A stretch of DNA of 64,000 bases from Amoebophrya sp. A120 (taxonomy: Eukaryota > Protista > Dinoflagellata): NCBI GenBank assembly GCA_905178155.1, contig CAJINV010000008.1, positions 2,533,762 through 2,597,761 of the forward strand, written 5' to 3'. The position numbers and the translations under genes were made by a program. Below are positions 2,270-64,000 of the stretch, piece by piece; positions within the stretch are counted from its first letter, which is position 1, and every line of letters starts with the position of its first letter. The notes under the pieces were generated by a model. That model was given only the letters and a program-made list of their open reading frames with translations, was not told the DNA's origin and ran no database searches.

Positions 2270-5200
2270 CTATGCAAGTAAGTACATGCTCACAGCCGCG
2301 CTGCTTTGCGCCGACGACGCTAGCGACGTACACACATTTCCCGGCCGCACCGGCTGCGCCACGCCCGCAATGGAAGCCGACGACGGCTTCCGCGAACGTA
2401 CCTCTGCCTCTCCAAACTGCACGGCCAGTGCGTTCTTCTTCTTCGTGCCCTCTGCGGAAGTTGGGCTGCCTGTAGTTCAGTGGTGCAGGAGAACAAGAAT
2501 TCTTGGACCACGTCGATTAAGTGAAAATAGAAAACCTCTCCATACAACTTACTGCCTTCAACACCAAGCTACATTTCAGGATGCGGACAGACTGTACACG
2601 TGGGGCATGCTGAGCGCTCGACGGCTTTGCGCTCCTAGTACTTGTGGCAGAAAAAAAAAAGTATACCGAATTTTAAACTCTATGAATTCCACCATTTTGA
2701 TTCTACCATTTGGCTGGTCTCCCGCGGCACCCAGCCCCTGCGCCCCCTGCGCCTCCAACGACATGGCCTGCGCCACGGTCAGTTCCGCGCGGTCGGTGGC
2801 CATACCGGTCTTCAAGGACATCGTGGCCTGCACGCCGTCGTCGGCCTCGTTTGGGGGCGTCGCGTGCGCGGACCGCGAGGGTGACATTACCCGACTCTCA
2901 AATGGCGAGGCAGCGATCGAAGCGGCAATGGAAGCCGCGATGTTGGGGGAGTTACGCGCACTGAACTCCTGCAGCAGGTCATCGCACGGAAAAACTTGTA
3001 TGGCGGAAGTTCCTTGTTGAAGACACAGTTTTCTGTCATGCTCGACTACATGCTGACAGAGATGACCAGCGCGACCCCTATTCAAGTATCATTCGTCGTC
3101 TTCGTTTTCCTTTAACTTTGCTTGTTTTGTTTCTGCTTGCTTTACACACGTCAAATCATGACGCAATAACGTCAGAGGTTTCTCACAGGTGGCGCCCTGT
3201 CTACTTACTAAAAATGCACGTTGTTTGTGCTGCTGTTAGGGTCGGTGTGCAAAGGTAGAGTTATTAGTATTACACAACCAGTACAGTTTTTTCCTGTCGG
3301 ATACTCGTTGAACCGCTCCAAGTCGATTGGTGCGCCGAGTGTGGCGCTCTAAAGCGTTGCATTGACAGCGGTTACACGAATAATAATTTGTGACGCAAGA
3401 TCAATGTGAATAGCAAAAGCGAGAGTGGGAAGTCTGCGCGTTTTGCAATTGCATGTACAAATTACGGATTGCCATGCTGCTTGGGGGCGCTTTGAGAATT
3501 TTTCACACGCAGTAGCATGATCGTGTGAGCGTGGAATGGAGACTAACACTAAAGGTGACCGATTTTGCATGACAAATCGTGTGGCAAGCAACCTATGTCA
3601 CGCTTGCAAACGTCATACCGAGCACCGACCCCTTGCGGATCTGGTTCCAGAGGAGCGCCTCATGCAGCGCGTTCGCTGCGATGGGCTTCTTTTCGTCCGG
3701 CTCCTCGTCGGCATTTTGAAAATCCGGCGCCGTCTCGTCCACAACCACCGACGTTGCCTGGATGATGGTCCCGTCCGGCGACAGGGCCATACCGGGCGCC
3801 AGACCCGGAAGTCCGCCGGAGAAGGACTTCGCCCGCGGCCGTTTCCGGTCCATCTCGGCCGGGTTCAGCAGTTTCGACGCCGGGTTCCGCTGGAAGGTGG
3901 ACGTTTCGACGGTGGACTTTTTCGAAAGCTGAAACTGCCGGAAACCGTTGCCGTTGGTTCCCGAAGAACTACCCATCGCCTTGCCGTCCTGCTGCGCTGT
4001 CCTCGTGGCCGCGCCGCCACTCTTGCTCGGAAAAGAATTGTCCGCGGCTAACGTGCCGATTGATGTTGTAAGTCCCCCGCCGGGGCTCCGCGGCACGATA
4101 TTGTTTCCTCCGTGCTTATTTTCAGCTTGTTGGGATGATGGAATACTACTATTTCTCGGACTGCCCGTCACAATCGCATCGGAGCTGTTGCTTTTTTTGA
4201 TGCTGCGCCGCCGGCTTTCGTGCAAATCGTTCGTGGTAATCGCAGATGGTCGTTTTCTCGAGACTTCCTGCCACTTGTCTTCGATGATACTCTTCCGCCG
4301 CTGTTCGCTTGCATCTTTCTGCTTCTGCTCCTCGTCTTTATTTGTCGAAGGGGGTGCTGAGTGAGAGGTCTCTTCGTCTTTCTGATCATTTTCCACCACG
4401 ACGAGGCTGTTCTGCCCTTGCGGTTCTTTCGACGTAAAGTCCTCTGACTGCTCTACCCCTGTTCTTGGGGCAGTAGTTTTCTTTTCGGTCGTAGTATCTA
4501 CGCTTTCCGCCGAAGTAACGGTGCAGCTTGCGCCACCGTTCTTGTGGGCCATCTTGGCACCAACAACAATTACCTGCGTGTCAACCGGCGTTAGGGGCCG
4601 TGACCGCTCTTTCTCCTCGCTCCCTTCGACTGCTGCAGACACCGCATTAGTACTCAAAGCAGGTGGCGATGCTGTATACTCAGGGAAAAACTGTGATACA
4701 GAAAAAAATTTGAAATTTTGTGTCGCCGAAAAGAGCAGCATTTGGGCGCGGCTACTGACACAACTTGCAGTTGCAGATATGCCGCAAGTGGCGCCGAGAA
4801 CAGGTAAGTAGGTGGTCAAGGTGATGAGTGTGGTCGTTTTCCGGCTGCAGCGATAGCAGCCGCGGCAGGTGGTGGCTTAGATTCCGGGACCACTGCGCGG
4901 AGCCGGCGTGGTCGCTTCTAGATGACCTTGCTTCTATGATTTTAGAATGCATTTCATTGATTTTGATAATAGGTTAACTAGCTAGCTGGCTAAAGTAGTT
5001 TAGCAATAGATAAATGCCTGAAATGCAACTATTTTAGCACGCAACTAAGGGAGTTTTCAACTAGCCGGATGAGGAGGCATCGGAAGCCCAAAAATGCTGC
5101 ATATTCGCGTATACAGGTCGGTACTAGGGTAGGAAGTGCCCTTGTTGCACCATAGATGGTGCAACATGGGCACTAAGGGGCTGCTATAGGACGGTGCTGG

Positions 5201-62069: not shown

Positions 62070-64000
62070 TCAGCCGATTTTCTTCCGCCATATGTAGATT
62101 TCTTGCTGCTTGAAATACCTTAAAAATATTTGTATGAACAAGTTGTACACACGATCTTCACCGGGAGTAGCTGTTGTTTGCAACGACATTTTTTGCATCT
62201 TCTTCTTCGTAGTTCATGTTCCCTGATGAAACAACAAATGGAAATGACTCGTCCAAGTCCTGAGAGACAGCTACATATTAACCAGGTTCATTGATTTCTT
62301 GCTGTTGGTAGTGGTACCCCATTCCCATACAAAGGTAAAACATGTTCCTGTTGCACGTATACATGCTGTGCCCCCAGAAAAAAAAGTGACAAACTCCTAT
62401 ACCTCCTATCCTCTTCATCCACCAGCACCAGATTGAGAAAGTATTTCACCGAGAACTTGTTTTGTACGTTTTTGTATGTCGGCTGGAGGTCGACCCCCGA
62501 GAGGTAGAAGCGGACGGGAATGCATTCCCCCCGCACCGGCGCACCGTCCATGATTTCGAACTTGGTCAGCGTTTCGTTGTCGCTGCTCTGGTTCTGCGCA
62601 CCGGACCCCGTGGTTTCGCGCCGGATTATGTTCAGCTCCATGTATCAAATGTAAAAATGTCTGGGTCTGGAAGATTGCCAGGTTTGTCATGCTTGTCTGG
62701 CATGACTCTAAAATATGTCATGCACGTTACCCAAGAGCCCCACTTTGCTGTCATGCAGAAACGCAGTTTTTCATGCAGAATAGCCAACACCTAGAAGCTC
62801 AACAGCTTGTCATGCTGCGCCAGCACTTGTGGCCTCTTCATGACACGCCACCCAGCATCACAAGTTTCCAGACCCAGACATTTTTACATTCGATACCATG
62901 TGCTTGATCTTGATTCGCACCAGCAGAAAGTACACCTTCCCTACCACCACATCCTTCATATGGTACTTGCTTTTATCGTACCTGAGTACAGAAGTAGTGG
63001 GGTGTCAAAACGAGCAGGATCTCGGTGAAAAGAATACTTGCAGGTTGTAACTGTAAGTGTCGGCGTCGGCCACAGCACAGCTACGTGATATGTAATAAAT
63101 AAATTACAGTGAACAAAATCAAAAACCAACTGTGAAGCAACAAAAATAAAAATCATGACAGAGAAGCAAGACACGTTGCAGTAAATACTCAAACTCGATG
63201 TGCAAGCAGTCCTCTATGCCGACCTCCATCTTGATGGTATTGTTGATGTCTGGAACGGTGAAGCTGTTGAGTACAATTTTGCATGTTTTTATGCCGCAGA
63301 TGCAGATGCACAAGGGCATCAGTAAAAACTCGCAACGAAGTTAAAGTAAAGTAAGTTATTTTATCAATACTTTGAATTACAGCTACAAACTAAAGCTAAA
63401 ACTTCATTCAACGTGCACAAACGAAAAACTATACAGGTTCTGCACGACGAGGTCGACTTCCTTGGTGATGTTCGAGCTATAATTCCTGACCACCACCAGC
63501 CGGACGAAGACTATCCACCGCAAAAGTGTCTCGCTCGTTTGGAAAATTAATTGTGATGCGCGGCTGGCATGGGTCTGAATAGATACTACAACTGCGGTGC
63601 ATATTCTTGCAGACATCATGCCGTGTGAAGATGTCGTGTATTGCTGAAAATCTTGAACAAATTGCTACCACCTTCAGATACATCAAAAATTTTCCAGCGA
63701 ATTTATTCTAGCAGAGACACCATGCGTAAAGTAGCGGAGCCGCACATTTATCCCTGAGTAGGTCTCGCACTGCTTTATCAAATGTAAAAATGTCTGGGTC
63801 TGGAAACTTGTGATGCTGTGTGGCGTATCATGAGGAGGCCACAATTGCTGGCTCAGCATGACAAGTTTCTGAGCTTCTAGGTGTTGCCTATTCTGCATGA
63901 CAAACTACGTTTCTGCATGACAGAAAAGCGCAGCTCTTTGGTAATGTGCATGACAGATTTAGGAGTCATGCCAGACAAGCATGACAAACTTGCATTCTTC
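62070..64000 (-). CDS. VPS26: Vacuolar protein sorting 26 (retromer subunit), 5'-partial
   Basis: [90 protein letters not shown]; three GT-AG introns and three TIR introns. Confidence 0.96.
62643..62895. mobile_element. TIR introner, family A
   Basis: Perfect TSD CCATG; removal restores [12 protein letters not shown]. Confidence 0.96.
63512..63728. mobile_element. Eroded TIR introner in VPS26
   Basis: TAT...GTA ends; flanks AAGAC/AAGTA; removal restores the conserved RY|FVR. Confidence 0.7.
63776..64000. mobile_element. TIR introner, family A, truncated by the window end
   Basis: Left TIR TATCAAATGTAAAAATGTCTGGGTCTGGAA; body near-identical to 5947-6201. Confidence 0.93.

Follow-up and report, generated by a model that had tools for sequence, protein, structure and literature searches.

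We analysed a stretch of 64,000 nucleotides (nt) from the dinoflagellate Amoebophrya sp. A120 (assembly GCA_905178155.1, contig CAJINV010000008.1, positions 2,533,762 to 2,597,761), hereafter the window, in which positions are counted from the first letter. The genes identified in it lie on the minus strand; among them are a gene for an RRM protein (Pfam), the gene for phosphoacetylglucosamine mutase (PGM3, Pfam; 16052-22640), and those for calmodulin and VPS26. Canonical GT-AG introns and short elements bounded by terminal inverted repeats (TIRs) occur among these genes, and the mapped elements are absent from transcript contigs. A sequence-only reading of the window had sorted these elements into families A to I and had proposed that all of them share the terminal pattern TAY-N7-AAAAA, that the last base of the target duplication plus TAY serves as a relaxed splice donor (N-TAY), and that the mirrored T-run serves as a pyrimidine tract.

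Inverted-repeat elements and transcript contigs

The nine 15-nt family ends quoted in that reading are all exact matches in the window and each opens an inverted-repeat element. A direct repeat of 5 base pairs (bp) flanks the nine family elements, perfectly in eight cases and with 4/5 matching bases in family D. TAY-N7-AAAAA has 44 matches on both strands of the window, compared with 22 for a spacer of 8 nt and 7-17 for the other spacers between 0 and 15 nt. Thus, the common end pattern stands, but its A-run was overstated: in family F it is shifted and consists of AAA only, at positions 13-15, and 75/548 TA-starting ends have at most three As at positions 11-15. Nor are the families wholly unrelated, as had been claimed, since A, B, C, D, F, G, H and I, otherwise dissimilar, have internal motifs of 15-24 nt in common.

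To this we add an inverted-repeat search in which the motif was not used, covering the window and 122 non-redundant loci of one other assembly. The comparison loci stem from a single pattern scan that gave 134 stretches, 132 of which were kept as loci; they share element families with the window (up to 97% identity), but no exons. The search returned 354 elements flanked on both sides by an identical repeat of 5 bp or more. This repeat is 5 bp long in 308/354 and 6 bp long in 27/354, and 523 of the 708 element ends begin with TAT and 15 with TAC; the remainder is made up largely of off-register or chance pairs. The elements are small transposon copies whose inverted repeats end in TAT…ATA and whose target duplication measures 5 bp.

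Both the elements and their end motif have already been published and are not new. According to Farhat et al. 2021 (PMC7789003), over 60% of A120 introns are non-canonical, and their inverted-repeat motifs consist of TAT, seven less conserved bases and at least three As. The mean length of these introns is given as 240 nt in the introner papers (PMC7789003, PMC12130899), as against 238-364 nt for those mapped here. The published hallmarks of A120 introners recur in the window: TAT followed by seven variable nucleotides and at least three As, a direct repeat of 3-5 nt overlapping the exon/intron borders, repeated families (several copies in the window, plus the 132 loci of the other assembly), and removal from transcripts with non-GT-AG ends, seen at 14 non-canonical joints in one sample.

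The transcript evidence consists of assembled contigs from runs X1-X4, all from one sample, whose RNA label is the guess of a tool. Only runs X7-X9 are recorded as RNA. Canonical and non-canonical introns are both missing from the contigs, even within one and the same contig, and PGM3 after splicing has an open frame of 870 codons, so the contigs behave as mRNA. Of the X7 raw reads, 129 aligned, 122 of them with 90-95% identity; they cover element ends (e.g. window 43285-43337) but no exons, which suggests a related strain with related elements. Alignment of the X1-X4 contigs to window positions 7600-22000 gave 17 joints, of which 15 are listed, plus one loose end, whereas alignment to 26600-46599 (likeness 92) gave 29 joints, 15 of them listed and mostly running from repeat to repeat, with one clean joint. 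The resulting set comprises 17 junctions, 3 GT-AG and 14 non-canonical, all on the minus strand.

A single register at the element junctions

Four of the non-canonical introns are young family members. Two belong to family A and have opposite orientations, namely 14158-14425 (CT..TC, perfect 5-bp duplication; joint 14156>14425 in X1, X2 and X4) and 14901-15167 (AT..AG; joint 14899>15167 in X1-X4). The others are a family-B intron at 14528-14822 (TT..TG; joint 14526>14822 in X1 and X4) and a family-I intron at 46154-46481 (AT..GG; joint 46152>46481 in X1, X2 and X3), the latter made up of the element 46158-46480 and one copy of the duplication. What the transcript contigs lack is in each case the element plus exactly one copy of its duplication. 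Perfect duplications leave the position of the cut ambiguous, whereas diverged ones resolve it.

One old intron, 11093-11416 (TT..AG; joint 11091>11416 in X1-X4), lies in the RRM-protein gene; its element spans 11097-11415, its duplication matches at 4/5 bases, and offsets of 0-3 nt between the cut and the TA are allowed. The others lie in PGM3, which has 12 introns, 9 non-canonical and 3 GT-AG, and carries a long low-complexity stretch ahead of the mutase domain. Contig joints place them at 16603-16840 (GT..TC; offsets 1-4 allowed, 0 excluded), 16873-17236 (CT..GA; offsets -1 to 1 allowed, 2 and above excluded), 17971-18224 (TT..AA; 1-2), 18994-19275 (TT..AC; 0-1), 19488-19761 (AT..GC; 0-2) and 20214-20490 (GT..TC; 0-4). 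A family-B-like intron at 20550-20865 (TT..TC) has ATG rather than ATA as its 3′ motif and is still precisely removed. Two introns allow only offset 1. The first, 18605-18929 (GT..GG; joint 18604>18930, both=0, X1-X4), has its cuts unambiguously fixed, 1 nt ahead of TAT and 4 nt beyond ATA; the second, 21854-22181 (TT..CG), has TAG as its 5′ motif and the same unambiguous 1+4 cut, being represented by the loose end at 21853 (X1, X2 and X4), whose 30 letters are those of window 22182-22211.

Offset 1, with the cut 1 nt before TA, agrees with 17/17 junctions, as against 13 for offset 0 and 12 for offset 2. If cuts fell uniformly within the duplication, offset 1 would be allowed by all ten informative introns with a probability of 1.3e-4. 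In this register all 14 non-GT-AG introns read N-TA…AT-N-NNNN. At their 5′ end the first base is free (T6/G3/A3/C2) and followed by T in 14, A in 14 and T in 13 cases at +2, +3 and +4; at their 3′ end -7 is A in 14, -6 is T in 14 and -5 is A in 13, and positions -4 to -1 are variable. One 1+4 register (1 nt before TAT, 4 nt after the mirror ATA), with neither GT nor AG required, fits all mapped junctions. The 5′ offset had been named in the sequence-only reading before the RNA data were brought in.

The canonical introns of the same genes use a related donor. In PGM3, contig joints define GT-AG introns at 17591-17854 (donor GTAATA), 19854-20111 (GTACTT) and 21163-21471 (GTAAGG). Reading frames, likewise on the minus strand, support two in the calmodulin gene, 54832-54987 (GTACTG) and 55140-55265 (GTATCA), and three in VPS26, 62119-62402 (GTATAG), 62982-63188 (GTATTT) and 63264-63434 (GTATAG). 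In the VPS26 introns 62119-62402 and 62982-63188 GTA recurs just after the acceptor AG, so that these junctions can be slid as well. All eight donors with RNA or frame support start with GTA (GTAT 4, GTAC 2, GTAA 2), and with 6/8 reading GTAY and the other two GTAA, the remark that canonical donors in this window are mostly GTAT or GTAC was borne out. A gene-parsing model recovered 13/17 known introns exactly, and of the 18 introns it predicted where RNA mapping was available 12 proved true; we do not use as proof the introns it predicts without verification, nor the 88 canonical donors among its predictions (GTAT 22, GTAG 14, GTAC 14, GTAA 12, GTG- 26). Regarding published classes, the mapped element introns do not have the GT/GC donor and AG acceptor of U2-type introns, nor a polypyrimidine tract specific to the 3′ end, but they do have the U2-type donor core U+2, A+3, in 14/14 mapped introns and in all 181 of the oriented copies described below.

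The positions that persist in old copies are those of the register. In the 10 old mapped introns TAT/ATA is retained at 58/60 bases (29/30 per end), as had been anticipated for eroded copies, whereas the duplications match at 29/50 bases. Pairing between the two TIRs is kept at 28/30 for the three terminal positions, 38/70 for positions 4-10 and 28/50 for positions 11-15 (terminal triplet versus other classes of old-intron positions, Fisher p 8e-5 to 7e-4, the bases being non-independent). Retention of the run is 32/50 at the 5′ end (A-run) and 33/50 at the 3′ end (T-run), and in pairing the T-run does not surpass positions 4-10 (p=1.0). Among 301 younger copies, by comparison, left-right mismatches are rare at positions 1-3 (9, 3 and 12) and also at 11-13 (7, 7 and 10), and frequent at 4-8 and 10 (52-153). 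The suggested test against neutral decay therefore divides: TAY decays more slowly than its neighbours, while the A-tract erodes like spacer. We read this as two constraints, with the A-run mattering while a copy is mobile and TAT mattering also after fixation. As a separate observation, GCATA-NNNN is present at the 3′ end in 8/10 old mapped introns (11093-22181) versus TA(T/G)GC at 4/10 5′ ends; this 3′ bias is not seen in oriented young copies and is no more than a weak trend among the older introns predicted in the other assembly (18 vs 9 discordant, p=0.12), and we treat it as a lead only.

Copies in the other assembly were oriented with a codon model, whose thresholds 218/374 copies passed. 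On the window it oriented 25/25 elements correctly, a check that is partly circular because the model was partly trained on the window. In the 181 oriented copies that passed a register filter, +2T and +3A are invariant (181/181), whereas the mirror positions -5 and -6 change six times (p=0.03). A symmetric transposase or DNA-binding site cannot produce changes that are biased to the 3′ side by the transcript strand. The outermost bases are free: in the set of 171 oriented copies used for these counts, +1 is A55 G46 C42 T28 and terminal AG occurs in 14/171, while among mapped introns G at +1 occurs in 3/14 and terminal AG in 2/14. These counts (G+1 in 46/171 and AG in 14/171 oriented copies) led us to reject the idea that insertions are selected for a G at +1 or for a terminal AG. 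In the comparison loci, G at +1 was found in 31/65 predicted old introns, defined by eroded TIRs, versus 30/86 young ones; the excess may reflect drift towards GT, or canonical introns that were mis-predicted. The elements work in either orientation, as had been proposed: the opposite family-A copies 14162 and 14905 are both removed, and orientations are about equal in two families (28/24 and 15/14).

Candidate machineries for element removal

We consider it probable, if by no means settled, that the U2-type spliceosome of the cell reads these ends as an N-U-A(-U) donor with a free first base and without AG, cutting in the 1+4 register. Since all eight supported canonical donors start with GTA, a single spliceosome for both intron classes is the simplest account. 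The shared U+2/A+3 core, identical to that used by the canonical GTA donors, would likely be read by U6. In A120, Farhat et al. 2021 (PMC7789003) found U2, U4, U5, U6 and nearly all spliceosomal proteins, and did not find U1 and snRNP27. In yeasts loss of SNRNP27K goes with a preference for U at +4 (Parker et al. 2023, PMC10581693). This provides a possible reason for TAT, in that its +4U bias may be a consequence of the loss of snRNP27. In Table S4 of Farhat et al. (PMC7789003), all nine predominant non-canonical end pairs of A120 have T in second position, and all nine predominant pairs of strain A25 start with TT.

With no AG available, either the hairpin or the distance from AUA must place the 3′ cut; the distance is the likely measure, and in young copies the terminal hairpin may help. 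A-7 is a candidate branch nucleotide. A putative branch A lies at position 10 of the 15-nt introns of Stentor, i.e. at -6 (PMC9505925), so a branch at A-7 appears geometrically feasible. The A-run, which is conserved among young copies and erodes after fixation, likely serves as a signal for transposase binding. More tentatively, and with somewhat less confidence than would make it our working model, it is possible that most splicing in A120 relies on a pared-down code that does not depend on U1 (5′ end N-U-A, A-U five bases ahead of the 3′ cut, neither G+1 nor AG), with A-7 as branch point and the 3′ site set purely by distance. Any TAT…ATA transposon with a 5-bp duplication would then be a perfect intron as soon as it inserts, whichever way it points.

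Several points weigh against removal by the spliceosome in a fixed register. The RNA evidence comprises assemblies of four runs on a single sample, minor cut sites are concealed in such contigs, and the joints considered are the 15 of 17 and 15 of 29 listed for the two regions. Nine of the 10 old introns sit in one gene, PGM3, and the orientation of the 181 copies rests on a codon model checked on this window only. The context of A-7 matches yUnAy in family A only, and the TAC-ended families D and E, whose removal is supported by reading frame only, would have G at -7. The involvement of spliceosomal machinery is itself only inferred. Finally, TAT and ATA are complementary, and their joint retention also fits an enzyme that reads structure.

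The last point leads to the main rival, a separate, non-spliceosomal nuclease and ligase that would recognise the closed hairpin end (UAU/AUA) and cut at a distance of 1 nt on its 5′ side and 4 nt on its 3′ side, much like the mechanism proposed for the non-conventional introns of euglenids. Such an enzyme would account for the persistence of TAT and ATA as a complementary pair and for the fact that the sole 3′ change in mapped introns (ATG) preserves a U-G pair; the lack of AG, of a G+1 preference and of a specific pyrimidine tract, and the failure of the earlier survey to find U1 in A120 (PMC7789003), would also be as expected, and the predicted fold pairs +3 with -6 in 8/14 mapped introns. 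On the other hand, the predicted fold leaves the ends unclosed in 5/10 old introns that are still precisely removed, no compensated changes were seen at positions 1-2, where changes fall on the 3′ side only (6 vs 0), and U+2/A+3 is identical to the canonical donor core of the same genes. We therefore regard a hairpin-reading enzyme as rather unlikely, and favour the spliceosome as the machinery that reads the U+2/A+3 core.

A variant of the spliceosomal account, in which the N-TAY donor is combined with the mirrored TTTTT at -19 to -15 as a U2AF-type pyrimidine tract, fares worse and is improbable. Its donor half is supported, the position of the T-run is plausible, and young copies show strong conservation at positions 11-13 (3, 7 and 5 left-right mismatches across the 181 oriented copies). 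Yet the near-equal retention at the two ends of old introns, with pairing no better than that of the free spacer, speaks against a 3′-specific function; oriented copies and predicted older introns likewise show no excess at the 3′ end, and in young copies the T-run would be base-paired. The pyrimidine-tract part of the sequence-only reading thus lacks support.

It is even less probable that the grammar is a transposase signature and nothing more, with the cut falling anywhere in the duplication and TAY not being read. IS3EU elements always end in TA..TA (PMC10045372), some with TAYGG..CCRTA (PMC12730594), and the symmetry of the motif is that expected of a DNA-binding site; IS3EU/GingerRoot-like termini may explain the origin of the motif, and a transposase signature probably accounts for the A-run as well. 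As a sole explanation, a transposase signature is contradicted by the single register that fits all junctions (p=1.3e-4), by the persistence of TAT/ATA in copies too eroded to be likely substrates, and by the bias of changes with respect to the transcript strand.

The U12-type consensus comprises an RTATCCTT donor and a TCCTTRAC branch site. A minor spliceosome reading RTATCCT, which the family-B ends N-TATCCT had brought to mind, can practically be set aside: that donor-plus-branch-site combination was not found in the window, whose sense strand has no TCCTTRAC, N-TATCCT occurs 13 times on each strand, TATCCT is one among the many forms that the spacer takes, mapped introns differ at +5/+6, the termini are not AC/AG, and U11, U12, U4atac and U6atac are reported absent from A120 (PMC7789003). 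An Rfam scan of the window gave 0 matches, which concerns the window only and has no bearing on the genome. Taken together, the window holds a real, published element system, for which the earlier interpretation is supported in part, namely for the N-TAY donor but not for the pyrimidine tract or the U12 resemblance.

Relation to published systems and further elements

In the A120 survey of Farhat et al. (PMC7789003) splice sites were described as variable relative to the hairpin motif and without a clear dinucleotide signature, whereas we find one 1+4 register with a U+2/A+3 and A-7/U-6 core; similarly, 22 of 58 A120 dataset rows of Gozashti et al. 2025 (PMC12130899) give mixed registers, as opposed to the single register here. 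A fixed register for A120 was not found stated in the accessible parts of the open-access literature searched (including PMC12130899, PMC11282704, PMC12005148 and PMC13326754), subscription papers lying outside that scope. How A120 disposes of tens of thousands of non-GT-AG introns had no answer in 2021, in part because the junctions are blurred by the duplications. With a fixed register, the 'hypervariable' splice sites reduce to a single code, which has U+2/A+3 in common with normal donors; the junctions could then be re-annotated, and the register specifies which bases to mutate and where to look for the branch. It would also explain the spread of the elements, as a symmetric transposon end gives a valid intron in both orientations. 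TAT is likely a splice signal of a loosened spliceosome, and the A-run likely a mobility signal.

Non-GT-AG introns derived from elements with TIRs and target duplications are likewise known at genome scale in Fritillaria borealis (Soo et al. 2026, PMC13326754; PMC11282704), where they are removed by a modified U2-type spliceosome, with changes in U6 N6-methyladenosine (m6A) and U2AF implicated. The Fritillaria introns end mainly in AG-AC/AG-AT and U1 is present, while here the terminal dinucleotides are free except for T+2, and U1 was not found in A120. Non-conventional introns of euglenids (PMC11282704) resemble those of the window in that terminal pairing is set back from the junctions, duplication-like repeats are present and a pyrimidine tract is lacking. 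Their pairing involves CAG at +4 to +6 and CTG at -8 to -6, in contrast to +2 to +4 with -7 to -5 here, and unlike the euglenid motif, the 5′ motif here overlaps the canonical GTA donor core. With regard to the transposons themselves, IS3EU/GingerRoot elements (PMC10045372, PMC12730594) have TIRs and TA..TA or TAYGG..CCRTA termini, of which TA..TA is shared here, but their duplication is usually 6 bp rather than 5 bp, and the open reading frames (ORFs) tested here gave no transposase match. These were 6 ORFs of three long elements without any Pfam match, three of the ORFs coming from a 2.9-kb element at 6255-9194 of comparison locus L072 and the remainder from the composites 4677-5632 and 7799-8859 of the window. 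The L072 element has family-C-like TIRs matching at 25/25 positions, a perfect 5-bp duplication and internal repeats.

Further family members in the window are supported by sequence or reading frame. The family-E composite at 4677-5632 has TAC ends and a perfect duplication, and its removal in the 1+4 register leaves the frame open, which is its only support; nested in it is a long hairpin (5007-5304) with neither an A-run nor a duplication. Frame alone also supports removal of a family-A element at 5947-6201. The frame is likewise open upon removal of the elements of families F (30255-30489, with the A-run at positions 13-15), G (32212-32366) and B (33220-33499), whereas for family H (33540-33849) the frame test was confounded by a flank that took in the neighbouring element 40 nt away. 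In VPS26, removal of a family-A element at 62639-62896 (minus strand) in the 1+4 register gives a continuous frame, and an old non-canonical intron (T-TAC…ATA-GTCT) is predicted from the reading frame at 63508-63729 on the same strand, offsets -1 to 3 giving the same protein. Another family-A element, 63776-64000, is cut by the end of the window. The family-D composite at 7799-8859, with TAC ends and a duplication matching at 4/5 bases, contains a nested family-C copy (8615-8823, perfect duplication); removal of the composite leaves the frame open, and it has no joint among those listed. An exonic near-duplication of about 30 nt (7763-7798 and 8860-8890) flanks this composite, and the joined frame repeats LVECCAVPR.

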